A stretch of DNA of 64,000 nt from an uncultured Flavobacteriaceae bacterium (GTDB lineage: Bacteria > Bacteroidota > Bacteroidia > Flavobacteriales > Flavobacteriaceae). Below the pieces are notes generated by a model. The model worked only from the letters and a program-made list of their open reading frames with translations, ran no database searches and was not told the origin of the DNA. Made by a program: the position numbers and the translations under genes. Positions 3,000-60,848 of the stretch are shown piece by piece. The stretch is from positions 21,906 to 85,905 of the forward strand of contig CAYXAZ010000001.1 in NCBI GenBank assembly GCA_964463085.1. Reading direction: 5' to 3'. Position 1 is the stretch's first letter. Each line of letters starts with the position of its first letter.

Positions 3000-3102
3000 G
3001 TGTTTATATTATTTTATGAAATCGGTCATCCCGATAGCTATCGGGACTGTTCGCTATTAGTCATTCCCTTAGGTGTGAAAAATAGTAACATGCTCGTTTC
3101 AT
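3000..3102 (-). repeat. Start-codon-adjacent element, copy 1, containing an 18-bp palindrome at 3029-3046
   Basis: Matches 4583-4692, 16545-16632 and 52327-52430; 14-bp direct repeat tttcatgtgtttat at 2994-3007 and 3097-3110. Confidence 0.85.
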
Positions 3103-3130
3103 GTGTTTATGTTTATTGTTTTTTTAACTT

Positions 3131-4582
3131 TTAATATCCTGTATTTTGAATCATATTAGGGTTTACATCTATTTCCTGCTGTGGAATTGGATATGCATAT
3201 AAATTACCTCCGTAGGTAACCGTACAATTATTTAAAAGTGAACAGTCATTTCTAACGATATCTAACTGTAATCTTTTTATATCAAAAAATCGATGTCCTT
3301 CAAATGCTAATTCTCTTCTTCTCTCATCTAGAATATCATTCATTAACTGCAATCCTGATGATGTTATTTCCGGTGCATTGGCTCTTTCAGTTATCTTGTT
3401 AATTGCAACTCTTGCCTCACCAGGTTCGTTTAGACCGACATGTGACTCTGCTTTGACCAAATACATTTCAGTTAACCTAACAACAGGGAGTGTAAAGTTT
3501 AGTAATGCTCCATCATTGTCAGGGTATTTATTTACGAAATTTTGCCCTCCTATATCTATAATCCAATTCTTTCTAACATCATTTCCTGTGTACATATTTA
3601 CGATATCAAAGTTAGGGCCTCCTTCACCCCGACCACCCGGTTGAGGTTTAAACAAACCTGATAAACTTGATATTCCTGCCCACAGACCATCTAAGTTGTC
3701 AAATTCAAGCTCAAAAATAGATTCTGAACTGGGTGTTCTGCTTGACCAAGAATCTATCTGTGATAGATCCAATACACCACCATCAAAAATCTTATACGGT
3801 GCTAATGTAAATCCTCCATTATCAATTACATCATTAGCATCTATCAACGCGTTAGCGTGGTCGCCCATATATAAATATACGCGGGCTCTTAATGCTTTTG
3901 CTGCCCAAGCTGATCCAAAATTAGGGGCATCTGCTGATGCTCTACTATTTCCATTACTCATTAAGTTAATTGCATCATCTAGATCAACTAAAATAAATTG
4001 ATAATTTTCTGCAACAGTATTTCTTGGAGGCTCTAATGTAATATCGGTAATCGTTACATAAGGTATTCCTAAATGACCAGCGTCAGTAGTAAATTTATAA
4101 TCTTGCGCATACAGTTTTAAAAGATCATGATGCGCTAAAGCTCTAATAAACAAAGCTTCTCCTTTAATTCTATTCTTCTCAGCCTCAGAACCATCAACAG
4201 CATCAACATTATTAATAACATTGTTAGCACGAGCAATAACATCATATATTTGTGCCCAAGTAGAAGAAACAGCATTGTCTGTTGAAATATAAGTCATTTG
4301 ATAAAATGGTTCAAATTTTAAAAATGAACCTGCACCACCGGGAACGATAGAATTATCAGAAGTCATGTGTGCAAATCCAGGCAAGTTTCTACCATAATAG
4401 CTTCTACTTTGCATACCGGCATAAGAACCCGTTAAGGCTATATCTAAACCGGAAATACTATTTAGAGCATCTTCCACTGCAAGTTCATCGTGCGGTTTCA
4501 AATCTAACTCACCTTCACATCCCGAAATCAATAACGAAGTTATCGATATCAATACTAAAAATATTTTATTAACTTTTTTCAT
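3131..4582 (-). CDS. RagB/SusD family outer-membrane lipoprotein (start moved to ATG at 4582)
   Basis: Signal peptide II LLISG-C; motifs GEALFIRALAH, VRLTEMYL..AE and ERRRELAFEGHRFFDIKR; downstream of SusC. Confidence 0.95.
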   Translation of the reverse strand: MKKVNKIFLVLISITSLLISGCEGELDLKPHDELAVEDALNSISGLDIALTGSYAGMQSRSYYGRNLPGFAHMTSDNSIVPGGAGSFLKFEPFYQMTYISTDNAVSSTWAQIYDVIARANNVINNVDAVDGSEAEKNRIKGEALFIRALAHHDLLKLYAQDYKFTTDAGHLGIPYVTITDITLEPPRNTVAENYQFILVDLDDAINLMSNGNSRASADAPNFGSAWAAKALRARVYLYMGDHANALIDANDVIDNGGFTLAPYKIFDGGVLDLSQIDSWSSRTPSSESIFELEFDNLDGLWAGISSLSGLFKPQPGGRGEGGPNFDIVNMYTGNDVRKNWIIDIGGQNFVNKYPDNDGALLNFTLPVVRLTEMYLVKAESHVGLNEPGEARVAINKITERANAPEITSSGLQLMNDILDERRRELAFEGHRFFDIKRLQLDIVRNDCSLLNNCTVTYGGNLYAYPIPQQEIDVNPNMIQNTGY

Positions 4583-4692
4583 GTGTTTATATTTATTATT
4601 TTTCAAAGGTTCCCGAGGCTTCGGGACTGTTCGCTATTCATCATTTCTTTGGATGATATCCCGAGACTTCGGGATTAGCATGCTCGTTTCAT
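4583..4692 (-). repeat. Start-codon-adjacent element, copy 2, containing two 16-bp palindromes (4611-4626, 4659-4674)
   Basis: Shares ctgttcgctatt..tcatt and agcatgctcgtttcat with the other copies; abuts the SusD ATG. Confidence 0.85.
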
Positions 4693-4715
4693 TTTATATC
4701 GCGTTTTTAATTTCT

Positions 4716-7700
4716 TTAAAATCCTAAATTTATACCTAAAGTAAAGGTTCTGGGAATTGGATATTCGCCTCTGGCACTTGAATTAGAGCCAACTTCAGGA
4801 TCTAGTTCCTTATATCTAGACCACGTTTTAACATTTTGACCTTGCACATATATCCTAAAATTGTTAATTCCGATCTTTTCTGTAATATCATTTGGAAGAT
4901 TATAGGCCAAGGTTATATTTCTTAGCTTGATAAATGATCCATCTTCTAAAAATCTTGTTGAGGGTTCCCCTCCGGTACCATTACCTGCAATATATCTTGG
5001 AACATCTGTTATGTCTCCCGGTTGCTGCCACCTGTCTAAAGCTTCAGCGGATTGGTTTCTAGGAAATCTTGAACCATCACTAACATAAGCTCTGGCTGAG
5101 TGCCTGAATATTTCATTCCCATAATTAAAGAAGAACATGGTTGATAATGTGAAGTTTTTGTAGGTAAAATCATTGGATAAACTGCCAAAAAAGTCAGGAT
5201 TAGGATTGCCCACAATTACTCTATCGGCATCACCGAAATTAGTTACTATATTATTGTCTGCATCATACCAAAGTGGTGCACCATTAGCAGGGTCTACTCC
5301 AGCCCATCTCGGCATATACCAAGAATAAATAGCTTCTCCTTCTTTTATAATCGTATTTGCCCTAAATGCGGTACTCCCTAAAGATCCAATTATTTCTATA
5401 TCATCGGGTAAATCTGTAACAACATTTTCATTAAATGAGATATTAAAATTGGTATTCCATTTAAAATTATCGGTTTCAATATTTTTTGTGCTTAATGAAA
5501 ATTCCCAGCCTGTGTTTTCCATTGCTCCTATATTTGATGGAACAGTATTGAAACCGGAAGTTAAACTGATAGGAAGATTAAGTAACATATCTGATACTTC
5601 TCTTTTATAATATTCTGCTGTTATTTGAATTCGATTATCAAACAATGCTAGATCTAAAGCAATGTCAAACTGCTTATTTCTTTCCCATCCTAAATCAGGA
5701 TTTCCTATTTCTGAAGGAAAACTTCCTGTATATGTACCTCCATTAGTATTATAGGTAGCTCCGTTAAAACCGTATAGTCTTCTCCAGTCATATTCTCCAA
5801 ATTTTTGATTACCTGATGTACCATAACTACCTCTCAATTTAAGGTTGCTAATTAATTTACTATCACTTAACCACTTGGCATTTGAAATAATATAGCCTCC
5901 TCCAACAGACCAAAATGTTCCGAATCGGGTATCGGTTCCAAAACGAGATTCACCATCTCTTCGTATACTTCCGTCTAAGAATAATGTGCTTTTATAGCTA
6001 TAATTCAATCTCCCGAATAATCCCCAGATGGCTGATTCAACAATATCTCCAGATGCTTCTAATATTTCCGGACCTGCATTTACTGCGTTAAGGTCATCAC
6101 TTGCAAAGCCAGTAACACGAATGCCAATAAATTCTTCTTTATGCTTTTGAAACTCATTACCTGCAAGCAATGTAAAGTCATGATCTTCGCCAACAGTAAG
6201 ATCATAAGTTAGTGTATTGGTCACAACATAATCAAAATTATTGGTTGAAAAGTCTCTTAATTCTGCCGGAGTTGGTGTACCGGTAGCTATAGCATTAAAA
6301 TATAATTGTGAAAATCGTTCTCTTTCACGAATATCAATATAATCTATACCGAAGCTATTATTGAATTTTAGGTTAGGTAGTATTTTATAATTGGCATACA
6401 GATTTGTAATGACTCTATTCGTTCTAGTTTCATTAAAATTCAGGTTTGCATACGCAATTGGGTGATTTCCGCTTGAGACTCCACTTGGGATATCAAAATT
6501 ATATCCGGTACCAAAATCTTCGCCATTAGCAATTTGTTCATCAGTAGCATATATTCTCATAGTTGGAGGCATAAAAAGCCCTCCGTATAGGGGTTCAGAT
6601 GTATTTGACTGTCCAAATCTACTATGTTGTATATTTCTTGTTAAACTCATTTTAACGCCTAAATCTAATTTTTTAGTAGCAGCATAATCAACATTGAATT
6701 TTGCAGATATTCTTTCAAAATCAGTGGTAATGGCTATCCCATCTTGATTCAAATAGCCTAAAGAAGCATAAAAATTAAGTTTTTCACTACCTCCGGAAAC
6801 AGAGAAATCTATTTTATTGGTTTTTGCTGTTCTTAAAACTTCATCTAACCAATCAATATCTGTAGCTGTTGAACTTAAAGGAAAATAATCTGAAGTCCCT
6901 GGAATGTCAGGGTTGCGCCCGGCATTGATAACACCTTCTCTCATCAATTCAACATATTCGCTAGCATTTAAGACTCTAAAATCGCTAAAATTTTCCCAAT
7001 CAGAAAAACCGGTTTGAGTATTTAAAATGAATCTTGCTTTGCCGGATTTTCCTTTTTTAGTGGTTATTATAACTACCCCATTGGCTCCTCTAGAACCATA
7101 AATAGAAGCCGAAGCAGCATCTTTTAAAATAGAAATAGATTCGATATCATTAGGGTTAATTGTTGATAGCGGATTATATGTTTGGGTAGTCCTATCTAAA
7201 TTTCCGGTATTTATAGGTACACCATCAATTACATATAAAGGACTTTCACCGGCTCCTATAGAACCTGTACCTCTAATTTTAATATCCATACCAGCTCCCG
7301 GTTGTCCATTATCCGGAGAAACAGCTACACCGGCTGACACCCCTTGTAATGCTTGATCAATACTAGTAGATAGCGTTTCATTAATCTCACTTGCACTTAC
7401 TGTAGAAACTGCCCCGGTTATTTTTTTCCTACTACTTGTTCCATAGGCAATAACAATAACTTCATCTAAGGAATCCGTAGCAGGATCAAGAAGTATATTA
7501 AGCTGTGATTGGTTGTCTACCTGAACTTCTTTTGTTGTATATCCCAGATACGAGACTACTAAAATAGCATTTGGTCCTGAAACTTTAATAGAAAAAATTC
7601 CATCAAAATCAGTAGTTACCCCGTTGGTTGTTCCTTTTTCGATAATATTGACACCGGGGAGCGGATTACCAAGTTCATCTTTTATTATTCCGTTTACCTC

Positions 7701-8072
7701 TTGTTGTTGAATAGTTTTAACTTTTTTAACAGGAACAGTTTTTACCTTAGTGATCAGCACATTTTTCCCCTCAATAAGATATCTGAATTTAGCTGTTTTT
7801 GATAAGTCATCTAAAATATGACTAAGTGATTGGGCATTATATACGGCTGTATATTTATTTTTGTTGTGGAGGATATACTCTCCGTAAGAAAAATTATAAC
7901 CTGTTTCATTTTTTAATTCTGAAAAAATTTGAATAAGCTCAACATCGGTCAGATTAATGCTTACTTTTGTTTTATCTGTGGTTTTTTGACTAATAAAACC
8001 ATAACTTATGTTAGTAACCAGTAAAATAGTTAGTAACAAAAAAAGTTTTAGTAAATAGTTTTTTAAATTCAT
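4716..8072 (-). CDS. SusC/RagA TonB-dependent transporter with N-terminal STN signalling extension
   Basis: Motifs GNPLPGVNIIEKGTTNG, PLYVIDGVP and DIESISILKDAASASIYGSRGANGVVIITTK; C-terminal F; extra N-terminal domain typical of ECF/FecR loci. Confidence 0.97.
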   Translation of the reverse strand: MNLKNYLLKLFLLLTILLVTNISYGFISQKTTDKTKVSINLTDVELIQIFSELKNETGYNFSYGEYILHNKNKYTAVYNAQSLSHILDDLSKTAKFRYLIEGKNVLITKVKTVPVKKVKTIQQQEVNGIIKDELGNPLPGVNIIEKGTTNGVTTDFDGIFSIKVSGPNAILVVSYLGYTTKEVQVDNQSQLNILLDPATDSLDEVIVIAYGTSSRKKITGAVSTVSASEINETLSTSIDQALQGVSAGVAVSPDNGQPGAGMDIKIRGTGSIGAGESPLYVIDGVPINTGNLDRTTQTYNPLSTINPNDIESISILKDAASASIYGSRGANGVVIITTKKGKSGKARFILNTQTGFSDWENFSDFRVLNASEYVELMREGVINAGRNPDIPGTSDYFPLSSTATDIDWLDEVLRTAKTNKIDFSVSGGSEKLNFYASLGYLNQDGIAITTDFERISAKFNVDYAATKKLDLGVKMSLTRNIQHSRFGQSNTSEPLYGGLFMPPTMRIYATDEQIANGEDFGTGYNFDIPSGVSSGNHPIAYANLNFNETRTNRVITNLYANYKILPNLKFNNSFGIDYIDIRERERFSQLYFNAIATGTPTPAELRDFSTNNFDYVVTNTLTYDLTVGEDHDFTLLAGNEFQKHKEEFIGIRVTGFASDDLNAVNAGPEILEASGDIVESAIWGLFGRLNYSYKSTLFLDGSIRRDGESRFGTDTRFGTFWSVGGGYIISNAKWLSDSKLISNLKLRGSYGTSGNQKFGEYDWRRLYGFNGATYNTNGGTYTGSFPSEIGNPDLGWERNKQFDIALDLALFDNRIQITAEYYKREVSDMLLNLPISLTSGFNTVPSNIGAMENTGWEFSLSTKNIETDNFKWNTNFNISFNENVVTDLPDDIEIIGSLGSTAFRANTIIKEGEAIYSWYMPRWAGVDPANGAPLWYDADNNIVTNFGDADRVIVGNPNPDFFGSLSNDFTYKNFTLSTMFFFNYGNEIFRHSARAYVSDGSRFPRNQSAEALDRWQQPGDITDVPRYIAGNGTGGEPSTRFLEDGSFIKLRNITLAYNLPNDITEKIGINNFRIYVQGQNVKTWSRYKELDPEVGSNSSARGEYPIPRTFTLGINLGF

Positions 8073-8123
8073 AATTTATAGGTGTTGTTTTTTTAGTTAC
8101 GATCAGCACTTAATTTGGGGATG

Positions 8124-8143
8124 GAGTCTGTTACAGCAGACTC
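8124..8143 (-). promoter_or_regulatory. Stem-loop between fecR and susC
   Basis: gagtctg / cagactc inverted repeat just after the FecR stop; on the - strand it is preceded, not followed, by the A/T run. Confidence 0.5.
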
Positions 8144-8152
8144 TTCCTTTTT

Positions 8153-9079
8153 TTAGTTTTTTAGTTCTACTTCTATCATATTGTTTCGTTTTTGAGTTAA
8201 TTCTACTTCGCTTATAAAATTTATTCTCTTTACAATTGAGACTAAACTATCATTTTTATCAATAGTAATTGACATTCGGTGTTGTTGAGCCTGAGTACTT
8301 GAAAAGTTAAAGTTTACCTGATATATAGATGTAAGAAAATCTGCCAATTCTTTCATTGAAACATTTTCAAGCACAGCAATATCCTTGAACCAACCAGTAT
8401 ATAAATTATGGCTTATATTTTTTGTTAGTAAGGATTTCGATTTTAAATGGTATACAGCTTGCTGATTGGGTTTTATATTTACTGAACTTTCCGAGTCAAA
8501 TACTTTTACTAATCCTGAAGCTACTGTTACCTTGGTTATAGAATCTATTTCTTCAATATTAAAAGAGGTTCCTAATACTTTCGTACTTAAATTTCCTGTT
8601 TTTACTATAAACGGTTTTTCAATATTCTTAACAACTTCAAAGAAGGCTTCACCATTAAGAGCTACATATCTATCTTTTTGGTTAAAGTCTTCTTTATATT
8701 TGATTTCACTTCCTTTATTGAGTATAATAACGCTCCCATCTTTGAGTTCAATTTTTTTCGTTTCATCTGAAGTATTGGTTACTATAATAAAATCTATATT
8801 ATTATCTTGGTAGTATAAAAAAGTATATCCCATCCCCAACAAAATAATAATTGAAGCCGCAACCTTCATCCAATTTCTTCTTTCAGTACGAATCCTTCTT
8901 TTAATCTTCGTAAAGATCTCTTTTTTAATCTGTCTCTTTTTAAGATCACTTTCAAAGGCTATACCCTGATTTTTAGTTATAAAGTGTTCTTCAAACTTTT
9001 TTAAAAGTTTTTTCTCTTCAGGAGTTGCTTTCCCTGAAAGGAACTTTTCCAACAAAACATAAAATTCTTTTTCTGTCAT
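8153..9079 (-). CDS. FecR-family anti-sigma factor
   Basis: N-terminal LLEKFLSGKATPEEKKLL, one TM helix, motifs L.DGSVIILNKGS, LNGEAFFEV and VLGTSFNI. Confidence 0.95.
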   Translation of the reverse strand: MTEKEFYVLLEKFLSGKATPEEKKLLKKFEEHFITKNQGIAFESDLKKRQIKKEIFTKIKRRIRTERRNWMKVAASIIILLGMGYTFLYYQDNNIDFIIVTNTSDETKKIELKDGSVIILNKGSEIKYKEDFNQKDRYVALNGEAFFEVVKNIEKPFIVKTGNLSTKVLGTSFNIEEIDSITKVTVASGLVKVFDSESSVNIKPNQQAVYHLKSKSLLTKNISHNLYTGWFKDIAVLENVSMKELADFLTSIYQVNFNFSSTQAQQHRMSITIDKNDSLVSIVKRINFISEVELTQKRNNMIEVELKN

Positions 9080-9204
9080 TTCTCTATTATTATTATCATT
9101 ATATACCTAGAAATGATAATCACACGTAAAAAAAAATTAGAAAAACATAAATTTTAACATATTAATCTATAGATACTGTAAAAGAAGTAGCGTTAAATTC
9201 AAAG

Positions 9205-9272
9205 TAGTTTAATCTATCAAATTCCCCGATGGCTTGCCTCTGGGATAGCTTAGTTTCAAGAAATTTTTTATT
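9205..9272. repeat. Hairpin repeat (CCCCGA-GGCT-TGCCTC-GGG family), solo copy
   Basis: Left flank tagtttaatc matches 45544-45553; right flank gatag..tttcaagaaattttttatt matches 45757-45784. Confidence 0.7.
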
Positions 9273-9325
9273 TGTAGAATGAAAAGTGGTTTGTCATAAG
9301 TAGAGAACTCATCTTGAGTTCAGAG

Positions 9326-10604: not shown

Positions 10605-10612
10605 TATATTTG
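10605..10612 (+). promoter_or_regulatory. Bacteroidota housekeeping promoter -7 box
   Basis: TATATTTG matches the TAnnTTTG consensus, 50 bp upstream of ATG 10662. Confidence 0.7.
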
Positions 10613-10661
10613 CAATTAATTGACGATTTTTTCGTTAGTTCATAGTAAAAAGGGAAAATTC

Positions 10662-11462: not shown

Positions 11463-11519
11463 ATATGTTAATATTAATGACTACTTTTGTAAGCTCAAAA
11501 ATAGCAATTATTTTGTTGT

Positions 11520-15025: not shown

Positions 15026-15103
15026 TAAATCCCAATCCCGAGGCTTCGGGACAAATCACAAATAACAATTTCAAAATTATTTGGAATTTATTATTTGGAA
15101 TTT
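15026..15103. repeat. Degenerate heptamer tandem repeats with an inserted 16-bp palindrome (15036-15051)
   Basis: aaatccc/aaatcac/aaataac units followed by inverted tatttggaattt units; tcccgaggcttcggga lies within. Confidence 0.65.
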
Positions 15104-16544: not shown

Positions 16545-16632
16545 ATGAAACGAGCATGCTAAAAAGTTTAACACCCAAAGAAATGACTAATAGCGAACTG
16601 CATGTGACCGAATTATTAAATATTATAGACAC
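16545..16632 (+). repeat. Start-codon-adjacent element, copy 3 (no palindrome inserts)
   Basis: atgaaacgagcatgctaa...aaatgactaatagcgaactgcatgtgaccga...tatagacac followed by ATGAAA of the Lrp gene. Confidence 0.85.
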
Positions 16633-19175: not shown

Positions 19176-19262
19176 GGAGAGGTGGCCGAGTGGTTTAAGG
19201 CGCACGCTTGGAAAGCGTGTTTATGAGCAATTGTAACAAGGGTTCGAATCCCTTTCTCTCCG
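19176..19262 (+). tRNA. tRNA-Ser(GGA)
   Basis: Cloverleaf with anticodon arm cacgc-ttGGAaa-gcgtg, long variable arm and GGTTCGAATCC T-loop. Confidence 0.95.
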
Positions 19263-25529: not shown

Positions 25530-25564
25530 ACCCCGCTCCCGATAACTATCGGGATTAGTGGGGT
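25530..25564. repeat. Hairpin carrying an 18-bp palindrome in its loop
   Basis: accccgct / agtggggt outer stem enclosing tcccgataactatcggga (25537-25554). Confidence 0.7.
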
Positions 25565-39055: not shown

Positions 39056-39886
39056 ATGAAAAAAATACTAGTTCCAATCGATTTTTCTGATGAGGCTAAA
39101 TACGCTTGTAAAGTAGCTGCAACTATTGCTAAAAAAACAAACAGTGAAATTATATTACTGCATATGTTAGATATCCCTACAGAAGCAATAGACCCTATTG
39201 AGTCTAATAATCTTCGGGGTGGTGCACAAGCAATCTTTATTATGAAAGCAATTCATAAAAAATTTGAAAAAATTAAAGCTTTACCATTTTTTGATGGGAT
39301 TAAAGTTACTGAAGATGTAAAATTTCATAAAGCTTTTGAAGGTGTTATTGAAGAAAGTAAAAAACACAATGTTGACTTAGTTGTGATGGGTTCGCAAGGA
39401 GCAACAGGTTTAAAGGAAATGTTGGTAGGTTCTAATACCGAAAAAGTAGTTAGGCATTCTGATATACCGGTTTTAGTTATTAAGCAAGATGTTGATAATT
39501 TTGGTATTGATACTATAGTTTTTGCTTCTGATTTTAGCGATAAAAGTAAAAAATCATTTCAAAACGTATTGGATTTCGCAACTATATTTAATGCTAAATT
39601 ACATTTGTTATTTATCAATACTGTTCACAATTTTGAGCCAACTAAAAAATCTAAAAGTAAGCTTAAAGATTTTATTTCAGATTTTGATATTAAGGACTAT
39701 ACTCTAAATATTTATAATGATACTACTATTGAAGAAGGGATTTTAAACTTCGGAAAAGAAATTGATACTGATATTATTGCTATAAATACACACGGTAGAA
39801 GTGGTTTGTCACAACTGTTTAGCGAAAGTATTAGTAAAGAATTGGCAAACCATGCTTTAAGACCTGTCATTACTTTTAAAATTTAA
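39056..39886 (+). CDS. Universal stress protein (two USP domains), copy 1
   Basis: MKKILVPIDFS; DLVVMGSQG..G...VGSNTEKVVR. Confidence 0.95.
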   Translation: MKKILVPIDFSDEAKYACKVAATIAKKTNSEIILLHMLDIPTEAIDPIESNNLRGGAQAIFIMKAIHKKFEKIKALPFFDGIKVTEDVKFHKAFEGVIEESKKHNVDLVVMGSQGATGLKEMLVGSNTEKVVRHSDIPVLVIKQDVDNFGIDTIVFASDFSDKSKKSFQNVLDFATIFNAKLHLLFINTVHNFEPTKKSKSKLKDFISDFDIKDYTLNIYNDTTIEEGILNFGKEIDTDIIAINTHGRSGLSQLFSESISKELANHALRPVITFKI

Positions 39887-39972: not shown

Positions 39973-40803
39973 ATGAAAAAAATATTAGTTCCTGTTGATT
40001 TTTCTAAACAAGCAGAGCATGCATGTAAAGTAGCTGCAACTATTGCTAAAAAAACAAACAGTGAAATTATATTATTGCACATGTTAGATATTCCTTCAAC
40101 GTCTATAGATCCTGCTGGCGGAGGTAACCTTCAAGGAGGTGCCCAAAGTATTTATTATTTAAAGGGAATTCATAAAGAATTTGAAAAATTTAAAGCCTTC
40201 CCGTTTTTTGAAGGACTTACTATTATTGAAACGGTACGTTTTCACAAAGCGTTTGATGGGGTTATTGAAGAGAGTAAAAAAAATGATGTTGATTTGATTG
40301 TAATGGGCTCACAAGGGGCAACAGGTTTAAAGGAAATGTTAGTAGGCTCAAATACCGAAAAAGTGGTTAGACATTCTCACATTCCGGTTTTAGTCATCAA
40401 ACAAAATATTGAAAATTTTGAATTTAATGAGATGATCTTTGCTTCAGATTTTGGTATAGAAAGTAAGGCGAACTTCCAAAAAGTATTAGATTTCACAGCT
40501 GTTTTTAATGTAAAATTACATTTATTATTTATCAATACTATGCATAATTTTGAATCGACGAAAGTGTCTAAAGACAGACTTGAAAATTATGTTTCAAGTT
40601 TTGATATTAAAGATCATACCATAAATATTTACAATGATACAACTATTGAAGAAGGCATTTTAAATTTCGGCAAACAGATCAATGCTGATGTAATTGGTAT
40701 TTACACCCACGGTAGGAGTGGTTTATCACAATTATTTAATGAAAGTATAAGTAAAGAATTAGCGAATCATGCACTAAGACCAGTGATTACTTTTAAGGTT
40801 TAA
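39973..40803 (+). CDS. Universal stress protein, copy 2 (tandem paralogue)
   Basis: Same 276-aa length and motifs as copy 1. Confidence 0.95.
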   Translation: MKKILVPVDFSKQAEHACKVAATIAKKTNSEIILLHMLDIPSTSIDPAGGGNLQGGAQSIYYLKGIHKEFEKFKAFPFFEGLTIIETVRFHKAFDGVIEESKKNDVDLIVMGSQGATGLKEMLVGSNTEKVVRHSHIPVLVIKQNIENFEFNEMIFASDFGIESKANFQKVLDFTAVFNVKLHLLFINTMHNFESTKVSKDRLENYVSSFDIKDHTINIYNDTTIEEGILNFGKQINADVIGIYTHGRSGLSQLFNESISKELANHALRPVITFKV

Positions 40804-45451: not shown

Positions 45452-45459
45452 GTATAAGT

Positions 45460-45540
45460 TGTCATTCCTGCAAAAGCAGGAATCTCATGAATTAAAGCAG
45501 AATTATTATTGAGTAGATTCCTGCTTTTGCAGGAATGACA
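45460..45540. mobile_element. Inverted pair of TGTC-ended REP-like units (REPIN/MITE-like)
   Basis: Perfect 26-bp inverted repeats tgtcattcctgcaaaagcaggaatct at 45460-45485 and 45515-45540. Confidence 0.85.
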
Positions 45541-45543
45541 GAA

Positions 45544-45784
45544 TAGTTTAATCGAAAAGAATTCCCCTAGGCTCTGCCTCGGGGTTTCCGATTTACCTCT
45601 CCTTGGGAGAGGTCGGAACTGCTTTTCGCAGTTCCGGGTGAGGTAAAATACAAAATTTCGATTTTTGGTCCTAAGACCAAAGCTTGTGCTCAGCTTGACT
45701 GGATATGATCCCGATAGCTATCGGGAGGCGAAATATCCCTATGGCTCTGTCTCGGGGATAGTCGATTTCAAGAAATTTTTTATT
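45544..45784. mobile_element. Non-coding element bounded by two direct-orientation hairpins, with nested palindromes inside
   Basis: Hairpins at ~45561-45584 and ~45734-45757; internal cctctccttgggagagg..ggtgagg unit with a loop insert (45596-45643) and an 18-bp palindrome (45709-45726). Confidence 0.6.
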
Positions 45785-45785: not shown

Positions 45786-45873
45786 GAGATTCTTCCCCGA
45801 GTACTCGGGGTTCCTCCTTCTGAATGACAGCACAATGTCATTCTGAGTGAAGTATAACGAAGCGAAGAATCTC
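45786..45873. repeat. Tail-to-tail pair of TGTC-type REP units, one carrying ccccgagtactcgggg
   Basis: gagattcttc...gaatgaca (45786-45829) is the inverted counterpart of tgtcattctgag...gaagaatctc (45836-45873). Confidence 0.75.
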
Positions 45874-46658: not shown

Positions 46659-46828
46659 GGCACTGTTAAGAAATAAATAGTGCAGAATTAGCGAAGTAAT
46701 TTTATTCTTTTTCAAGGCAATCCCGAAGCTTCGGGATCAAGCATAGCATCTCTATAGTTCAAAATTTTAACGCAGTAAAAGGGCAAAAGAACAAGCTAAT
46801 TCTGCACTATTTATTTCTTAACAGTGCC
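46659..46828. mobile_element. 170-bp MITE with 34-bp perfect terminal inverted repeats and a TAA target duplication
   Basis: TIR ggcactgttaagaaataaatagtgcagaattagc at 46659-46692 and 46795-46828; TAA on both sides, the left one being the stop codon; palindrome at 46721-46736. Confidence 0.9.
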
Positions 46829-47589: not shown

Positions 47590-47774
47590 TAATAAGAAAT
47601 TTTTAAACTAATTTGTAATATTATAAAAATTGATATAAAAATGCAATTTAAATATGGCTTTATTATGTTGTTTGTAATAGATAATATATATCTGTCGAAA
47701 TGACATTGTACTTTATAAATAGTAATAATATTGAATTACCCATTATATTTGACATAGAGCCTAAACACTTTTAA

Positions 47775-50857: not shown

Positions 50858-50873
50858 TCTAAAAAAAATAAAA

Positions 50874-52208: not shown

Positions 52209-52251
52209 CAAACTTATTAATAGTAGCATTTAAATTAGTTTATTTTTGAGA

Positions 52252-52285
52252 GAATTTAGGGCAATAATTATATTGCTCTAAATTC
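52252..52285. terminator. Stem-loop after susD
   Basis: gaatttagggcaata-atta-tattgctctaaattc. Confidence 0.65.
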
Positions 52286-52326
52286 AATTCTCAACGCATC
52301 ACAATATAATTTCTTAATAAATTTTT

Positions 52327-52430
52327 GTGAAACACCCATAACTAAATCTTGATACACAAGGGAATGACTATATGGATGTTCCATGTGACTCCCGATAGCT
52401 ATCGGGATAAAAAACAATGAATATAGACAC
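52327..52430 (+). repeat. Start-codon-adjacent element, degenerate copy 4, with an 18-bp palindrome at 52390-52407
   Basis: gtgaaac...gaatgacta...catgtgac...tatagacac followed by ATGAAA. Confidence 0.7.
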
Positions 52431-53615: not shown

Positions 53616-53620
53616 AATAA

Positions 53621-54445: not shown

Positions 54446-56357
54446 GGTGATAGGAAAAAATATCGACTATAAAGAAGCCGGTAAATTTGAAGAGACCAGA
54501 TTTGAAAAAATTCACAATGTAATTTTTGATAATTCTAATGTAGCTTCTAGTATAGTAGCTAATGAAATTGCCGAACTTATTCGAAAAACAGCACTTGAAA
54601 ATAAAAATTGTGTGTTGGGATTAGCTACTGGTTCTTCTCCTATAAAAGTATATGAAGAATTGGTTAGAATGCATAATGAAGAAGGCTTGAGTTTTACTAA
54701 TGTAATTACTTTTAATTTGGACGAATATTATCCTATGGATAAACAAAACATCCAAAGTTATCATTATTTTATGCATGAACATCTTTTTAATCATATTGAT
54801 ATAATCCCTGAAAATATTCATATTCCTGATGGAACTATTCATAGTGATGATATACATCAATATTGTATTGATTATGAACTGAAAATTAAACAAGCCGGTG
54901 GTTTAGACCTTCAATTACTCGGTATTGGCAGAACGGGTCATGTGGGTTTTAATGAACCCGGTTCTCATTTAAATTCCGGTACGAGAAATATTACATTAGA
55001 TCATATTACAAGGGTTGATGCAGCTCCGGCCTTTTTAGGAATTGATAACGTACCTAGAAAAGCAATAACCATGGGTATTGGTACTATCAGAAAAGCCAAC
55101 AGAATTATATTATTGGCTTGGGGTATTAATAAAGCTGAGATTATTAAAGAGACCATTGAAGGTGAAATATCTTCTGATGTGCCTGCTACTTATTTACAAA
55201 ATCACAATAACACCTCTTTTATATTAGATAATGAAGCTGCTGGTGAGTTAACTAGGGTAAAAACACCTTGGCTGGTGTCTTCTTGTACTTGGTCTGAAAA
55301 CTTAAAAAGAAAAGCGGTTGTTTGGTTAAGCGAACTCCTACATAAATCTATACTAAAACTTACAGATAAAGATTATAACAATAATGGGATGTCTAGCTTA
55401 CTCATTGAAGAAAGTACAGCTTATGATCTAAATATTAAGATATTCAATAATTTGCAACATACTATTACTGGATGGCCCGGCGGTAAACCAAATGCTGATG
55501 ATACTAATAGACCTGAACGTGCAAATCCTGCAAATAAACGTGTTCTAATTTTCAGTCCTCACCCTGATGATGATGTAATATCTATGGGCAGTACCTTTGA
55601 CAGATTGATTGAACAAGGGCATGAGGTGCATGTAGCTTATCAAACCTCAGGAAATATAGCTGTTCCTGATGAAGATGCTTTAAAATTTGCTGAAGTCAGT
55701 AACAAATTAAATGAGTCAGATGAAATCAAAAATACTATCAATTATCTCAAGAAAAAGAAAGAAAACAGCATTGATACTATAGAAATAAGAAAACTCAAAG
55801 GTTTAATTAGAAGAAGTGAATCTTTAGCTGCTACACGATATTTAGGTTTGCCTGATGAAAATGTACATTTTTTAGATTTGCCATTTTATGAAACCGGAGC
55901 CATAAAAAAGAACAGATTATCTGATAATGATATAGAAATGATGTGTTCTTTAATAACAAAAATTAAACCACACCAAATATATGCTGCCGGTGATTTGGCT
56001 GACCCTCATGGAACGCATAAAGTTTGTTTAAATGCCCTTTTGGGTGCTTTAGAAAAATTAAGATCTAAACCATTTATGAACGACTGTTGGGTTTGGTTAT
56101 ATAGAGGTGCCTGGCTCGAATGGGAAACCTATGAAATTGATATGGCAGTCCCAATGAGTCCTGATCAGGTTCTGAAGAAAAGACATGCCATATTCTATCA
56201 TCAATCTCAAAAGGATGGAGTGATGTTTCAAGGGGATGACTCCAGGGAGTTCTGGGTAAGAGTTGAAGATAGAAATAGATTAACAGCTAAAAAATATCAT
56301 AATTTAGGTTTGGCTGATTATGCCGCTATTGAAGCTTTTAAACGTTATTATTTTTAG
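54435..56357 (+). CDS. nagB: Glucosamine-6-phosphate deaminase fused to a PIG-L-like deacetylase domain
   Basis: LGLATGSSP, FNLDEYY and GHVGFNEPG in the N-terminal half; HPDDDVI and DPHGTH in the C-terminal half. Confidence 0.92.
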   Translation: MGSKVIGKNIDYKEAGKFEETRFEKIHNVIFDNSNVASSIVANEIAELIRKTALENKNCVLGLATGSSPIKVYEELVRMHNEEGLSFTNVITFNLDEYYPMDKQNIQSYHYFMHEHLFNHIDIIPENIHIPDGTIHSDDIHQYCIDYELKIKQAGGLDLQLLGIGRTGHVGFNEPGSHLNSGTRNITLDHITRVDAAPAFLGIDNVPRKAITMGIGTIRKANRIILLAWGINKAEIIKETIEGEISSDVPATYLQNHNNTSFILDNEAAGELTRVKTPWLVSSCTWSENLKRKAVVWLSELLHKSILKLTDKDYNNNGMSSLLIEESTAYDLNIKIFNNLQHTITGWPGGKPNADDTNRPERANPANKRVLIFSPHPDDDVISMGSTFDRLIEQGHEVHVAYQTSGNIAVPDEDALKFAEVSNKLNESDEIKNTINYLKKKKENSIDTIEIRKLKGLIRRSESLAATRYLGLPDENVHFLDLPFYETGAIKKNRLSDNDIEMMCSLITKIKPHQIYAAGDLADPHGTHKVCLNALLGALEKLRSKPFMNDCWVWLYRGAWLEWETYEIDMAVPMSPDQVLKKRHAIFYHQSQKDGVMFQGDDSREFWVRVEDRNRLTAKKYHNLGLADYAAIEAFKRYYF

Positions 56358-56425
56358 CCTGATTGTTTATGTATATGTCAAAAAAATTATTTTGTAAATA
56401 GCTAAATGTTAATGCTTTGTAAAAA

Positions 56426-56525
56426 TGTCATTTCGAGCGCAGTCGAGAACTTATTTTACTAAAAGTGAAAAGAAAGGTCTCGCCTTTAGTTTATCTTGAG
56501 CGAAGCCGAAAGGCTCGACCCGACA
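56426..56525. repeat. Inverted pair of TGTC-type REP units with a nested second repeat
   Basis: tgtcatttcgagcgcagtcgagaac (56426-56450) and ggtctcg..ctcgacccgaca (56475-56525), the latter interrupted by gtttatcttgagcgaagccgaaagg (56489-56513). Confidence 0.7.
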
Positions 56526-56573
56526 TGTAATAAGTCTAGCTAATTCTTGTCATGTACTACTACCTAAATGTCA

Positions 56574-57806
56574 CTACATTTCCAATGCCTTCTTAGCATC
56601 GTTATTCATTAAAATTTCCACTGGGTTTTCTAAGGCTTCTTTAATCGCAACTAAGAATCCAACTGATTCTTTTCCGTCTATAATTCTATGATCATACGAC
56701 ACAGCTACGAACATAATAGGTCTGATCTCTACTTTACCATTAATTGCTACAGGTCGTTCTACAATATTATGCATTCCTAAAATAGCACTTTGCGGAGGGT
56801 TAATAATTGGTGTCGATAACATTGATCCAAACACACCGCCATTAGTAATGGTAAATGTACCTCCTGTCATTTCATCTATGGTAATTTCGCCATCTCTTGC
56901 ACGAATTGCCAACCGTTTTACTTCGCTTTCAATGCCTTTAAAAGTTAAATTTTCAGCATTTCTGATAACTGGCACCATTAATCCTTTTGGTCCGGAAACC
57001 GCTATTGAAATATCTTGAAAATCATACGACACTTTAAAATCGCCATCGATCATAGAATTTACATCAGGGAATAATTGTAAGGCTCTCACCACAGCTTTGG
57101 TAAAAAAACTCATAAAACCTAAACTTACACCATGTTTTGTTTTAAAATCTTCTTTGTATTGTTTGCGCAGATCAAATATAGGTTTCATATCAACTTCGTT
57201 AAACGTAGTTAACATTGCAGTTTCATTCTTTACAGCAACCAGGCGTTCAGCTACTTTACGACGTAACATTGATAGTTTTTTACGTTCTCCTCCCCTAGTA
57301 GTATCAACAGCCGGTGTACCCATACTCGGCACAGCTTTTATGGCATCATCTTTAGTAATTCTACCATCTTTACCTGTACCTTTTATGGTATCCGTTGAAA
57401 TATTTTTTTCAGCCAATATTTTTTTAGCTGCCGGTGAGGCTGTTCCTGTAGCATAAGTAGTTTCGGGTTTTGAGTTTGAGGTTTCGGGTTTTGACGGATT
57501 CTTAGATTCGTTAGAGCTATCAGAACCAGTACTACTGACTGCCGACTGACTACTCCCTTCTGGTTTAGCTACGCTCGTATCAATCAAACACACCACTGCA
57601 CCTACAGCTACCGCATCGCCTTCTTCTGCTTTAAGCGTAATAATTCCACTTTCTTCAGCCGGTAATTCTAAGGTTGCTTTATCAGAATCTACTTCGGCAA
57701 TTGCCTGATCTTTTTCAACATAATCACCATCTTCAACTAACCATGTTGCGATTTCTACTTCTGTAATAGATTCTCCCGGAGAGGGAACTTTCATTTCTAA
57801 AATCAT
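56574..57806 (-). CDS. sucB: 2-oxoglutarate dehydrogenase E2, dihydrolipoamide succinyltransferase (start moved to 57806)
   Basis: Lipoyl motif EVDSDKAT; catalytic DHRIIDG. Confidence 0.97.
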
Positions 57807-57822
57807 AATCTTTATTTTCTCT

Positions 57823-57854
57823 CGCAAAGGCGCAAAGGCGCTAAGTTGCAAAGG
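57823..57854. repeat. Octamer tandem repeat between sucA and sucB
   Basis: cgcaaagg-cgcaaagg-cgctaagt-tgcaaagg. Confidence 0.7.
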
Positions 57855-57899
57855 TTGTTTTATTATCTATTTTTAAATTTATACACAATAATCGTAAAT

Positions 57900-60629
57900 C
57901 TACAATTCGAATACTTTATCAATTACTCTTTGATGTCTTCTTTTAAACCTAGTACTAGAACCCGCTGCAGGAACCGAATAAAATGGTCTAGAAGCAACTT
58001 TCAATTTTACCAAATCAAAACGCAGTAATAAATAGCTCCAAGCGCCCATATTTTGGGGTTCTTCTTGTGCCCAAACATAATTTTTTACATTTTTATATCT
58101 GTCAATTACCCTTTGTAATTTTTCTTTATGTAATGGGAATAATTGTTCTATCCTAACTAATGCCACGTCTTCTCTTTCTAATTTTTCTCGTTCGGCTAAT
58201 AAATCATAATAGAATTTACCAGTACAAAATACTAATTTTTTAACCTTAGTAGGACTAATTGTATCGTCTATTACTTCTTGAAATTCTCCATTAGAAAACT
58301 CATTTAAACTTGATACTACTTTTGGATGACGTAGTAAACTTTTAGGTGTAAATACAATTAAAGGTTTTCTAAAATCACGTTTTAATTGTCGGCGTAACAA
58401 ATGAAAAAAATTAGCCGGGGTAGTACAATCGGCAACGGTCATATTATCATTTGCACATAATTGTAAATAACGTTCCATTCTAGCTGAAGAGTGCTCAGAA
58501 CCTTGACCTTCATATCCATGTGGTAACAATACAACTATTCCGTTTTGTAATTTCCATTTGTCCTCAGCAGCAGACATATATTGATCGAAAATAATTTGAG
58601 CTCCGTTACTAAAATCACCAAATTGTGCTTCCCAAATGGTCAATGTATTAGGATTCGCCATCGCATAACCATAATCAAAACCAAGTACGCCATATTCTGA
58701 CAGCAATGAATTATAAATATTCATTTGTCCCTTATTATCAGGGTTTGTATTCAGTAAATTGATACGTTCTTCAGAGATTTCATCTCGTAATATGGCATGA
58801 CGATGACTAAAGGTACCACGTTCAACATCTTGACCGGAAATTCGAATATTGTATCCTTCTTCTAATAATGAACCATAAGCTAATGTTTCCGCCAAGCCCC
58901 AATCAATAGTATCGGTTTCTATCATTTTGGCTCTACCAGACAGAATACGTTCTGCTTTTCGTAAAAATTTTACGCCTTCAGGCACAGTTGATACTACTTT
59001 TGCAATGTTTTTTAGATGCTGTTCTGCATATGTTGTATTAACGGGTAACAACATATCTTTTACATCTTTACGTGAAAACCCTTTCCATGTACTTTCCATA
59101 AAGGGCTTCAGACTTGAAGTAGTATCCCTTTTAGACATCTCATATTGATTTTCTAGCATGATCTTAAAATCAGCTATGATCTTCTTTTTATAAGCTTCAT
59201 CTATGACACCTTCATCTATTAAACGTTGTGCATAAATATCTCTGGGATTATCGTGTTTAGCTATCGCTTTATACAGGTTTGGTTGTGTAAAACGAGGTTC
59301 ATCACCTTCATTATGACCATATTTTCTATACCCTAATAAATCGATAAATACATCGCGTTTGAATTTCATTCTAAAGTCAAGCGCCATCTCTACAGCATGT
59401 ACTACTGCTTCGGCATCATCAGCATTTACATGAAGTACCGGAGATAATGTTACTTTTCCAATATCTGTACAATAGGTGCTTGACCTTGCATCTAAATAAT
59501 TGGTTGTAAATCCAATTTGATTATTAACCACAATATGAATGGTGCCTCCTGTTGAATATCCTTTAAGTTTACTCATTTGAATTACTTCATATACTACGCC
59601 TTGTCCTGCAATTGCTGCATCTCCATGAACAAGAATAGGTAGTATTTTTGAGGAATCTCCTTTGTATTTTCTATCAATTTTAGCTCGTGTGATTCCTTCT
59701 GCAACAGCATCAACTGCTTCTAAATGTGAAGGATTTGGCACTAAATTCATTTTTATATCCTTACCATTCTGATAGGTTTTATTTAAGCTCAAGCCTAAAT
59801 GATATTTTACATCACCATCTATATCATCATCATCAAAATCTTTCCCTTCAAATTCACTAAAAAGCTCTCTTACCGGTTTTCTAAATATATTTATTAAGGT
59901 ATTCAAACGCCCTCTATGCGCCATCCCGATAACACATTCTTCTAATTGATATTTATCAACAGCATTAAAAAGAGTCATACTAATTGCGGGAATCAATGTT
60001 TCTCCGCCTTCTAAAGAAAAACGCTTCTGTCCTACATATTTGGTTTGTAAGAATTGCTCAAAAGTTACAGCTTGGTTTAATTTTGAGAAAAGATGCTTTT
60101 TATCCTCAATAGAATAGTTAGGGTGATTATTATTTTTATGCAATTTTTCTTGCCACCATTTTATTTCTTCCGGCTGACGAATATACATATATTCAATACC
60201 AATAGAATCACAATACACTTCTTCTAAATGCGCTACAATTTCTTTTAATGTTGTACTACCTATTCCCAACACTTCACCTGCATCAAAAACCGTATCTAGA
60301 TCTTCTTTTGAAAGCCCAAAATTTTCTATAGCCAACGTTGGAGTGTACTTTCTACGTTCTCTTACAGGATTGGTTTTTGTAAATAGATGTCCTCTGGAAC
60401 GGTATCCATTCATTAGTTCAATAACCTGAAACTCTTTATGTACATGCCCTGGAATTTCAGATGTAGATTGTTCTTCTCCATCTAAAGAATAATCTGTATT
60501 AGCTAAATCATAACCTTGAAAAAAACTTCTCCAGCTTGGCTCTACCGCATCAGGATCTACTAAGTATTTATGATATAAATCTTCTATAAAACCAGTATGT
60601 GCTGCATTTAAAAAGGAAAATCTATCCAT
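57900..60629 (-). CDS. sucA: 2-oxoglutarate dehydrogenase E1
   Basis: GMAHRGRLN, HGDAAIAGQG and WEAQFGDF motifs. Confidence 0.98.
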   Translation of the reverse strand: MDRFSFLNAAHTGFIEDLYHKYLVDPDAVEPSWRSFFQGYDLANTDYSLDGEEQSTSEIPGHVHKEFQVIELMNGYRSRGHLFTKTNPVRERRKYTPTLAIENFGLSKEDLDTVFDAGEVLGIGSTTLKEIVAHLEEVYCDSIGIEYMYIRQPEEIKWWQEKLHKNNNHPNYSIEDKKHLFSKLNQAVTFEQFLQTKYVGQKRFSLEGGETLIPAISMTLFNAVDKYQLEECVIGMAHRGRLNTLINIFRKPVRELFSEFEGKDFDDDDIDGDVKYHLGLSLNKTYQNGKDIKMNLVPNPSHLEAVDAVAEGITRAKIDRKYKGDSSKILPILVHGDAAIAGQGVVYEVIQMSKLKGYSTGGTIHIVVNNQIGFTTNYLDARSSTYCTDIGKVTLSPVLHVNADDAEAVVHAVEMALDFRMKFKRDVFIDLLGYRKYGHNEGDEPRFTQPNLYKAIAKHDNPRDIYAQRLIDEGVIDEAYKKKIIADFKIMLENQYEMSKRDTTSSLKPFMESTWKGFSRKDVKDMLLPVNTTYAEQHLKNIAKVVSTVPEGVKFLRKAERILSGRAKMIETDTIDWGLAETLAYGSLLEEGYNIRISGQDVERGTFSHRHAILRDEISEERINLLNTNPDNKGQMNIYNSLLSEYGVLGFDYGYAMANPNTLTIWEAQFGDFSNGAQIIFDQYMSAAEDKWKLQNGIVVLLPHGYEGQGSEHSSARMERYLQLCANDNMTVADCTTPANFFHLLRRQLKRDFRKPLIVFTPKSLLRHPKVVSSLNEFSNGEFQEVIDDTISPTKVKKLVFCTGKFYYDLLAEREKLEREDVALVRIEQLFPLHKEKLQRVIDRYKNVKNYVWAQEEPQNMGAWSYLLLRFDLVKLKVASRPFYSVPAAGSSTRFKRRHQRVIDKVFEL

Positions 60630-60776
60630 TTATTTACCTATTTGTAACTTTAAAAAACATGAAAAACAAAAGTACAATTTTTATCATTATAGTATCATTA
60701 AATTTAGATTGTTATTGATAAATTTTATTTAGATAAAAAAAATTAATTTAGTACTTGTAGAGTATCAAAAAACATT

Positions 60777-60784
60777 TATATTTG
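60777..60784 (+). promoter_or_regulatory. -7 promoter box, probably the ancestral tRNA-Asn promoter
   Basis: TATATTTG with a TTG upstream; lies just before the duplicated tRNA leader. Confidence 0.75.
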
Positions 60785-60797
60785 CACTCCGAAAAGG

Positions 60798-60848
60798 AAA
60801 ATAAATTCCTCCTTAGCTCATCCCGATAGCTATCGGGAGGTTAGAGCA
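60798..60848 (+). pseudogene. Duplicated leader and 5' half of tRNA-Asn with an 18-bp palindrome replacing GTT of the D-loop
   Basis: 60798-60820 is identical to 61155-61177; then tcccgatagctatcggga in place of gtt; then ggttagagca as at 61181-61190. Confidence 0.92.

Follow-up and report, generated by a model that had tools for sequence, protein, structure and literature searches.

The stretch of DNA analyzed here (referred to as the window; 64 kb with a G+C content of ~31%, from an uncultured Flavobacteriaceae bacterium) contains a family of very short intergenic palindromes represented by the 18-mer TCCCGATAGCTATCGGGA. This palindrome is physically and reciprocally linked to one small family of GIY-YIG nucleases, and it has been inserted repeatedly and independently into the loops of tRNA fragments, hairpin tips, tandem repeats, phage DNA, and copies of itself, with the replacement of 3–5 nucleotides (nt) and no target duplication. 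With no more than moderate confidence, we interpret the 18-mer, and probably also its relatives of 16–18 nt, as a non-autonomous micro-element partnered with the GIY-YIG nucleases of ~95 amino acids (aa) of the Bacteroidota. The nuclease would be the agent of palindrome spread and would prefer DNA near its own gene.

The ten copies that the first-pass annotation had placed in the window are all present at their reported positions, and all lie between open reading frames (ORFs). The exact 18-mer is at 3029, 45709, 52390, and 60821, and a copy with a single mismatch (TAACTA center) is at 25537; no match to the 18-mer appeared in 100 dinucleotide-preserving shuffles of the window. The 16-mers at 4611, 4659, 15036, and 46721 have the form TCCCGA-N4-TCGGGA, for which the shuffle expectation is 0.03, and CCCCGAGTACTCGGGG is located at 45795. 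These copies (listed without strand) and the features associated with them are as follows.

3029–3046: solo 18-mer TCCCGATAGCTATCGGGA, part of a repeated leader module and 30 nt upstream of a minus-strand start codon at 2999.
4611–4626: 16-mer TCCCGAGGCTTCGGGA directly after GCGAACAG in the leader module, the position that the 18-mer occupies at 3029.
4659–4674: 16-mer TCCCGAGACTTCGGGA, the second palindrome of that leader module, directly after the mini-ORF.
15036–15051: 16-mer TCCCGAGGCTTCGGGA in the accB-accC spacer.
16545–16632, plus strand: "empty" leader-module copy with the mini-ORF MKRAC-stop and the sequence GCGAACTGCATGTGACCGA, the unfilled comparison.
25537–25554: solo 18-mer variant TCCCGATAACTATCGGGA in the loop of the imperfect host hairpin ACCCCGC/GTGGGGT, in the asnS-rpoN spacer.
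45709–45726: solo 18-mer within the host stem GGATAT/ATATCC, in a repeat-rich spacer of 550 nt.
45795–45810: CCCCGAGTACTCGGGG at the 5' base of a long inverted repeat (GAGATTCTT...AAGAATCTC).
46721–46736: 16-mer TCCCGAAGCTTCGGGA, equal to the 18-mer without its central T/A pair, near the center of a 146-nt hairpin with 22-nt arms.
52390–52407: solo 18-mer, 24 nt before the NamZ start codon, within an incomplete copy of the leader module.
60807–60848, plus strand: orphan 5' fragment of tRNA-Asn, consisting of tRNA positions 1–14, the palindrome, and positions 18–26.
60821–60838: nuclease-cassette 18-mer, which takes the place of GTT (tRNA positions 15–17) in the D loop of the orphan tRNA-Asn fragment.
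60871–61161, plus strand: stand-alone GIY-YIG nuclease gene encoding 96 aa, UPF0213/Slx1-like (Pfam PF01541, E = 7.7e-14).
61164–61238, plus strand: intact tRNA-Asn(GTT), which begins 3 nt past the nuclease stop codon.

The 18-mer at 60821 lies 33 nt upstream of the nuclease ORF, and the intact tRNA-Asn is downstream of this ORF. The same association is found in loci that were selected by the palindrome alone. An exact-match scan of a 596-Gb collection containing one genome per species, for which ~9 chance matches to the 18-mer are expected in total, yielded at least 120 loci (80 titles listed), and a GIY-YIG homologue is present within 600 nt in 6 of 120 of these as well as in the window. The control set comprised 783 kb of Flavobacteriaceae loci picked through rpoN and a SusC-like gene rather than through the palindrome, and the GIY-YIG family is absent from it; with the conservative assumption of one gene per 783 kb, the linkage has a Poisson P of ~3e-9. 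In the reciprocal set, 80 nuclease loci were fetched from more than 347 relatives by protein similarity only, without reference to the palindrome. A CCGA-N6-TCGG palindrome lies beside the ORF in ~72 of these 80, and it is the exact 18-mer in ~40; its position is 45–65 nt upstream or 5–45 nt downstream of the ORF, almost always within an orphan tRNA fragment. All of the listed relatives of the window nuclease are from Bacteroidota. The first-pass annotation had named both GIY-YIG genes and those of HUH transposases of the REP-associated tyrosine transposase (RAYT) type (REP, repetitive extragenic palindrome) as possible companions. The former association is strongly positive and the latter did not materialize: when all ORFs up to 1.5 kb from a palindrome were clustered without bias, no further family recurred specifically, and neither an HUH/RAYT gene nor a transposase emerged.

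The cassette that contains the nuclease gene has a minimal size of ~310–400 nt, with an intact tRNA on one side of the ORF and an orphan partial duplicate of the tRNA, bearing the palindrome, on the other. Two configurations that are mirror arrangements of each other were found among the fetched loci, which are designated by L-numbers. In configuration A, that of the window, a promoter-like box is followed by a tRNA 5' fragment (leader plus positions 1–26) with a palindrome in the D loop, a 5' untranslated region of ~22–40 nt, and the ORF, the stop codon of which overlaps the leader of the intact tRNA. In configuration B, the intact tRNA comes first and is separated by a short spacer from the ORF, after which come a tRNA 3' fragment with one or two palindromes and the native terminator. 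In the window, a Bacteroidota-type promoter-like box, TATATTTGCA, at 60777 precedes the orphan tRNA-Asn fragment; this fragment ends at tRNA position 26 and is not recognized as a tRNA gene by ARAGORN, which calls tRNAs in the window only at 19176, 40969, and 61164. The same D-loop arrangement is present in L121, L123, L126, L127, L129, L130, L149, L165, and L196. The tRNA of the cassette is mostly Asn, with Met, Thr, Leu, Phe, Val, and Pro also represented. Within a cassette, the palindrome is invariably located in the orphan fragment, with the ORF between it and the intact tRNA; this places it in the 5' untranslated region in configuration A and just past the stop codon in configuration B. 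Some orphan fragments carry two palindromes, and palindromes are present on both sides of the ORF in L089, L136, L140, L141, L163, L172, L181, and L190. Cassettes can also be amplified in tandem: in Amniculibacterium aquaticum (L125, 1391–2720), a tRNA-Met is followed by three 407-nt units, each comprising a GIY-YIG ORF, a tRNA-Met 3' pseudo-half with two palindromes, and a terminator. Nearly full-length pseudo-tRNA-Asn copies, in which the T arm is degenerate and the variable loop resembles a long variable arm because it holds a palindrome, are miscalled as genes by ARAGORN in L170 (1347–1434) and L185 (1092–1177 and 1232–1317). A separate array of tRNA-Leu pseudo-copies is found in L109 (~4360–4840), with TCCCGATAGCTATCGGGA, TCCCGATAATTATCGGGA, TCCCGACTGTAAACGTCGGGA, and TGCTGATAGTATCGTCAGCA in the loops.

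Where orphan fragments are compared with the intact tRNAs beside them, the bases that gave way to the palindrome can be read directly. The D loop has lost GTT, the anticodon loop ATAAT, the variable loop GGTCC, and the T loop GTT, AAT, GTC, GAGCC, or similar sequences, and AGAG is missing from the 3' acceptor strand, which is unpaired in a 3' fragment. No target duplication was seen in any orphan fragment compared in this way. In the window, the tRNA-Asn at 61164–61238 reads GCTCA-GTT-GGTTAGAGC, and the fragment at 60807–60848 reads GCTCA-(18-mer)-GGTTAGAGC. A second filled and empty pair is provided by a leader module of ~90 nt that lies directly upstream of four start codons, at 16545–16632 (plus strand), 3000–3102 (minus strand), 4607–4692 (minus strand), and ~52350–52430 (plus strand). 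The module opens with the conserved mini-ORF ATGAAACGAGCATG(C/T)TA.. (MKRAC-stop) and closes with ATATA(A/G)ACACATG, and its paralogous copies bear 0, 1, or 2 palindromes at differing positions. The copy at 16.6 kb has GCGAAC-TGCATG-TGACCGA, and the copy at 3.0 kb has GCGAACAG-(18-mer)-TGACCGA. In these pairs, 3–6 bases are lost and there is no target duplication. Both comparisons had been drawn in the first-pass annotation and are correct; its view that the palindrome is inserted in exchange for a few loop bases, with no target duplication, also holds for the tRNA fragments. A miniature inverted-repeat transposable element (MITE) of the DDE or insertion sequence type has terminal inverted repeats and a target-site duplication, but here there is no duplication and 3–5 nt are replaced. 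The leader module itself seems to be gained and lost as a unit, the whole copy at 52.3–52.4 kb being missing from the closest related genome described below. A common identity of the 16-mers and the 18-mer is only suggested, because their arms are shared and one 16-mer occupies the same insertion point in a paralogous module.

Insertion of the palindrome into itself, as read from nested copies, follows the same pattern of replacement of ~3 nt near the apex. Three nucleotides of the outer copy, CTA, are missing in L317 and in the middle layer of L131, and further nests, read from the flanks, are those of L029, with ATC missing, and the triple nest of L131, whose outermost copy lacks TAG.

The first-pass annotation had also held that every copy is inside another structured element. 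This is true of the window: four copies are in the leader module, those at 25537 and 45709 in hairpins, those at 45795 and 46721 in long inverted repeats, and the one at 60821 in the tRNA fragment, and the host at 15036 is only weakly structured; across the phylum, structured hosts are enriched 2–6-fold but are not universal. None of the five 18-mer copies in the window has a T run next to it on either strand, as an intrinsic terminator would. Rfam has no match at any palindrome site in the window, and the sole nearby match is an element similar to whalefall-1 at 45593–45645 (plus strand; 36.2 bits as compared with a gathering score of 37, E = 8.6e-6 for the window) in the hairpin-crowded 550-nt spacer. 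Long inverted repeats with perfect arms, which are MITE-like or large hairpins, are present at 45457–45544 and 46671–46816, the second of which has 22-nt arms and holds the 16-mer at 46721.

Among the 80 listed titles of loci with the exact 18-mer, 79 are from Bacteroidota (including Flavobacteriales, Chitinophagales, Saprospiraceae, Cytophagales, Sphingobacteriales, and Bacteroidales) and 1 is from an unclassified bacterium. The 18-mer is present in isolate and complete genomes as well as in metagenome-assembled genomes (MAGs) from different assemblers, and an assembly artefact was rejected on these grounds. It also occurs in 46 stretches of viral contigs from IMG/VR, often in the loops of terminator-like hairpins with no nuclease gene nearby. 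The possibility that the phage repeats bearing the 18-mer are whalefall-1 was considered and rejected. Two of the IMG/VR contigs (L284 at 4837 and L304 at 3392) have a phage-borne tRNA-like sequence with the 18-mer inserted in the region of the D arm.

Approximately 95% of the sampled genomic copies are solo, with no nuclease gene within 600 nt. The flanks of solo 18-mers are unrelated from site to site, and tRNA-like flanks are found at only ~5% of solo sites; these copies are therefore not cassette debris. Four contexts recur: flanks that are complementary and form a host hairpin with the palindrome at its tip; tandem repeats of ~7 nt; tRNA fragments; and intergenic repeats that are common in Bacteroidota. 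Although long stop-free frames make up 84% of the bases, 78% of copies are outside them. A perfect closing stem of at least 6 bp is present at 6.8% of sites as compared with 1.0% of controls, the flanks have a folding energy of -10 kcal/mol or lower at 19% of sites and 8% of controls (Mann-Whitney P = 0.001), and a direct 6-mer is shared by the flanks at 30% of sites and 18% of controls (P = 8e-4), an approximately 2-fold enrichment of tandem-repeat context. The base preceding the palindrome is T in just 5% of sites, and position -3 is a pyrimidine in 72%. In perfect host stems, the 18-mer abuts the stem and substitutes for the whole small loop, generating a long coaxial hairpin (L004, L055, L071, and L300); some copies extend terminator-like stems or sit inside a host terminator (L055, L300, and L305).

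The density of the palindrome varies between lineages. The window has five 18-mers in 64 kb, whereas the 783-kb control has one exact and two degenerate copies, a difference of ~50-fold, and such lineage-specific density fits bursts of insertion and not a fixed function. By rpoN and other genes, the window is part of a Flavobacteriaceae chromosome. The closest relative of the window genome, as judged by RpoN, is MAG D96SM.bin.25 (JAKISU01; 97% aa identity), followed by Aureibaculum (84–86%); the former, which has 90–95% nucleotide identity to the window, is referred to as the sister genome or sister MAG. Both degenerate control copies are in this genome (L201). The copy at 25537 in the asnS-rpoN spacer is present but decayed in the sister MAG (L201), and the whole ~105-nt segment that holds it is absent from the next relative, L202; the 230 nt upstream of rpoN in 78 further Flavobacteriaceae contain no palindrome of this family. 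At the site of the copy at 52390, the sister MAG (L336) is without the palindrome and the leader module together (an indel of ~83–99 nt), and a degenerate copy found only in the sister genome, downstream of rpoN, lies in an insertion of 57 nt. Exact-protein look-ups for strain-level relatives of the window genome found none on record, and a metagenome scan with the SusD-like protein gave relatives of at most 44% identity only. Histories of insertion in two steps are plausible because the window genome has many other small intergenic insertions relative to the sister genome, and hitchhiking is possible too. Among window-specific intergenic insertions as compared with L336 are 47656–47761 and 56364–56565, the second of which holds a repeat of the GTCATTTCGAGCGCAGTCGAGAAC type that is common in Bacteroidota spacers. 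A contig titled as a "Chlorobiota bacterium" MAG (L337, JAADHG010000219.1) encodes a SusC-like protein 86% identical to that of the window in the same gene order and is probably a mis-binned Flavobacteriaceae contig. Elsewhere in the window, two paralogous genes encoding 276 aa are arranged in tandem at 39056–39886 and 39973–40803, with 78–83% nucleotide identity.

Variants of the palindrome retain its 2-fold symmetry, for example TCCGATAGCTATCGGA, GCCGATAGCTATCGGC, and CCCGAAAGCTTTCGGG, and the orthologous cassettes L157 and L192 differ by a symmetric change of A..T to G..C. Single mismatches cluster at the two central pairs and display no sense-strand G-U bias (12 versus 15). Because the symmetry is kept in the absence of such a bias, the constraint looks like one that acts on DNA rather than on mRNA; a sense-strand constraint at the RNA level was considered and is not supported. 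Symmetric changes could also arise through intrastrand template switching within a palindrome. The TAGCTA core is found with every nuclease clade (47–97% identity), which fits sequence recognition by a conserved protein surface, and the conservation of the exact palindrome across nuclease clades and across the phylum suggests that it is recognized by its sequence and not by shape alone. The LexA operator of Bacteroidetes was rejected as the identity of the palindrome because it is a different motif, CTAA-N5-TTAG.

The ORF at 60871–61161 has the motifs, catalytic residues, and α/β fold of the GIY-YIG superfamily. Residues Tyr6, Tyr17, Arg27, His31, and Glu65 are invariant in an alignment of 30 sequences, Gly19 and Asn79 are kept in at least 90%, and a conserved helical segment, MKSKxYIxNLKxYPE, at the C terminus lies outside the core. 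Sequence records name the protein only as "GIY-YIG nuclease family protein" or "putative endonuclease," and NCBIfam has no match to it above cutoffs. The AlphaFold2 model is confident, with a pLDDT of 92.8. By sequence, the nearest protein is the UPF0213 protein BH0048 (1ZG2; E = 0.008); the nearest folds are 1ZG2, Slx1, and At-HIGLE, which are weak matches (TM score ~0.5–0.6, 18–24% identity), with I-TevI and UvrC ranked lower. Slx1 cuts branched and stem-loop DNA, and the solved members of the UPF0213/Slx1/HIGLE branch act on branched or stem-loop substrates. Because its nearest folds are those of UPF0213, Slx1, and HIGLE, the predicted structure points to a structure-directed nuclease.

A mechanism that would connect these properties is the cut-and-replace reaction at single-stranded DNA proposed in the first-pass annotation, whose interpretation is supported in part. 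The nuclease would act on stem-loops in single-stranded or extruded DNA, preferably close to its own gene, and would cut at or near their apex; the self-complementary 18-nt unit would then be put into the gap, either pasted with the help of host ligation or copied during repair. The partnership would be like that of REPs and RAYTs but with a hydrolytic GIY-YIG enzyme in place of an HUH transposase. In its strongest form, a minimal Slx1-like GIY-YIG nuclease would mobilize an 18-nt unit into stem-loop apices with replacement of ~3 nt, a form of transposition outside the DDE, HUH, serine, tyrosine, and target-primed classes, while the nuclease gene would persist and spread through the phylum by lodging in tRNA genes, the near-universal sequence of which serves as a landing site, and the palindromes break up the tRNA repeat that results; we put this forward only tentatively.

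Several results weigh against a micro-element moved by the nuclease. GIY-YIG enzymes are hydrolytic, and we know of none that performs strand transfer. Only a minority of solo sites have strongly pairing flanks, and the palindrome variants do not sort cleanly by nuclease clade. Empty alleles at orthologous sites, to which the first-pass annotation had looked for support, did not emerge: in three comparisons with the sister genome, at the rpoN and SusC loci, the palindrome is gained or lost with 57–105 nt of other sequence as part of composite indels, with no clean polymorphism of the palindrome only (+15 nt), and at two phage terminator sites, flank-plus-gap scans recovered filled alleles only. 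Finally, the constant tRNA-distal position of the palindrome is equally expected of a hairpin that protects the end of an mRNA.

An alternative is that the palindrome is a functional part of the cassette only, either a binding site of the nuclease itself (an operator or immunity site) or a hairpin by which the nuclease mRNA is protected at its tRNA-distal end once RNase P/Z has processed it, and that solo copies have spread passively by hitchhiking in small repeats, recombination, or gene conversion. This would fit the constant placement of the palindrome across the ORF from the intact tRNA and the gain and loss of orthologous palindromes together with longer sequences, and interruption of the orphan tRNA repeat would also stabilize the cassette against deletion. 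An end-protecting hairpin needs no fixed sequence, yet the palindrome is exact across the phylum and across nuclease clades, and the mismatches have no sense-strand G-U bias. In addition, self-nesting, the presence of several palindromes per fragment, and their differing positions in paralogous modules need repeated, independent insertion of the 18-mer, and the host sequences of solo copies are mutually unrelated. This explanation is possible but rather improbable.

It is less probable still, and in our judgement unlikely, that the palindrome is a selected motif beneficial to the host (a binding site for a DNA- or RNA-binding protein of Bacteroidota, a terminator or attenuator hairpin, or a signal of the DNA-uptake type) and that the link with the GIY-YIG gene is incidental. 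The exact conservation of the sequence across the phylum, the intergenic location of the copies, and those copies that extend terminator-like stems (L055, L300, and L305) are what such a motif would display, but the density differs between the window (5 per 64 kb) and the control Flavobacteriaceae loci (~1 per 783 kb), copies reside in pseudo-tRNA loops and within each other, no T run adjoins any of the five window 18-mers on either strand, the two degenerate copies in L201 are unlike the product of purifying selection at a given site, and the link with the nuclease is far beyond chance. The idea that solo copies are footprints of former GIY-YIG cassettes, left like solo long terminal repeats after deletion of the ORF, draws on the cassettes that have palindromes on both sides of the ORF and on tandem amplification, but it is very improbable and was rejected: the flanking palindromes have tRNA sequence on both of their sides and are therefore insertions into a fragment rather than cassette ends, sampled solo sites are generally without a tRNA or ORF remnant and few (~5%) have tRNA-like flanks, and a neighboring tRNA gene is the rule for nearly all cassettes but not for solo copies. 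Both a host motif and cassette footprints are disfavored by the nesting, the location in pseudo-tRNAs, the unevenness of the density, and the lack of flanks that resemble tRNA.

The pairing of the 18-mer with the nuclease may represent a new kind of nuclease-associated micro mobile element. In the searchable literature, including that on GIY-YIG with tRNA in Bacteroidetes, on UPF0213/YhbQ/COG2827, and on REPs in Flavobacteria, no description was found of the palindrome or of a tRNA-lodged cassette, and the phylum-wide partnership of nuclease and palindrome appears to be undescribed. If the link is causal, GIY-YIG would be the third enzyme superfamily that maintains short interspersed palindromes in bacteria, the widespread UPF0213-like "GIY-YIG nuclease family proteins" of Bacteroidota would acquire a role, and an account would be provided for intergenic hairpins and tRNA pseudogene fragments that annotation pipelines ignore or miscall. 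A protein of 96 aa and a site of 18 nt form a very small, sequence-defined system for the direct study of loop-targeted DNA insertion. On a cautious reading also, the 18-mer is a phylum-specific marker and the tRNA-lodged nuclease cassette is a compact selfish element.

With respect to known systems, the nuclease has its best sequence and fold matches, though weak ones, in the UPF0213/Slx1/HIGLE branch; to our knowledge, bacterial UPF0213 proteins have no known function and no repeat partner has been described for them. Free-standing GIY-YIG homing endonucleases include the Seg proteins of phage T4, one of which, SegB, is encoded in the T4 tRNA gene cluster. They resemble the present system in being small selfish GIY-YIG cassettes at or in tRNA genes with a duplicated or diverged target beside the gene, but Seg proteins and I-TevI have a separate DNA-binding domain and ~200–250 aa, whereas the protein described here is a catalytic domain alone; we know of no dispersed palindrome family that is associated with Seg genes. 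The GC clusters of yeast mitochondria and the Rickettsia palindromic elements (RPEs) are similar in that short G+C-rich palindromes invade an A+T-rich genome, including its structured RNA genes. They are longer and more heterogeneous, some make target duplications, RPE insertions in protein genes are in frame, and we know of no dedicated GIY-YIG partner for either.

The small dispersed repeats (SDRs) of cyanobacteria are cited in PMC5861425 and PMC3116915. SDR1-8 of Nostocaceae have a different sequence from the 18-mer, all classified listed matches to which are from Bacteroidota, so that the likeness is one of behavior only. Elhai et al. reportedly described SDRs in 2008 as hairpin repeats of ~20 nt that are located in other repeats, tandem repeats, and structured RNA genes and seem to replace sequence. 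The 18-mer shares with them its very small size, its hairpin form, its presence in other and tandem repeats and in structured RNA genes, and the replacement rather than addition of sequence. A specific nuclease gene is linked to the 18-mer, whereas we know of no enzyme partner for SDRs.

In REP/RAYT systems, a palindromic repeat flanks the gene of its partner nuclease and most copies are solo elsewhere (PMC3116915), and the definition of a REP includes a GTAG or CGTC tag at one end of the palindrome (PMC3733652). The present system has in common with them short, extragenic, dispersed palindromes, a repeat in the immediate flanks of the partner gene (~72 of 80 loci), a majority of solo copies that act or are acted on in trans, and a hairpin in single-stranded DNA as the presumed substrate (PMC3116915). 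It differs in that the partner is a GIY-YIG protein (PF01541) and not an HUH Y1 (IS200-like) enzyme, and TCCCGATAGCTATCGGGA is without the GTAG or CGTC tag. In place of a REP doublet, there is a single perfect palindrome of 18 nt that replaces the loop bases of other hairpins and has one sequence throughout the phylum, and the gene of its ~95-aa nuclease sits in a tRNA-gene cassette that can amplify in tandem. The 18-mer and its nuclease are closest to REP/RAYT in how the system works and closest to SDRs in insertion behavior, and they are a member of neither group.

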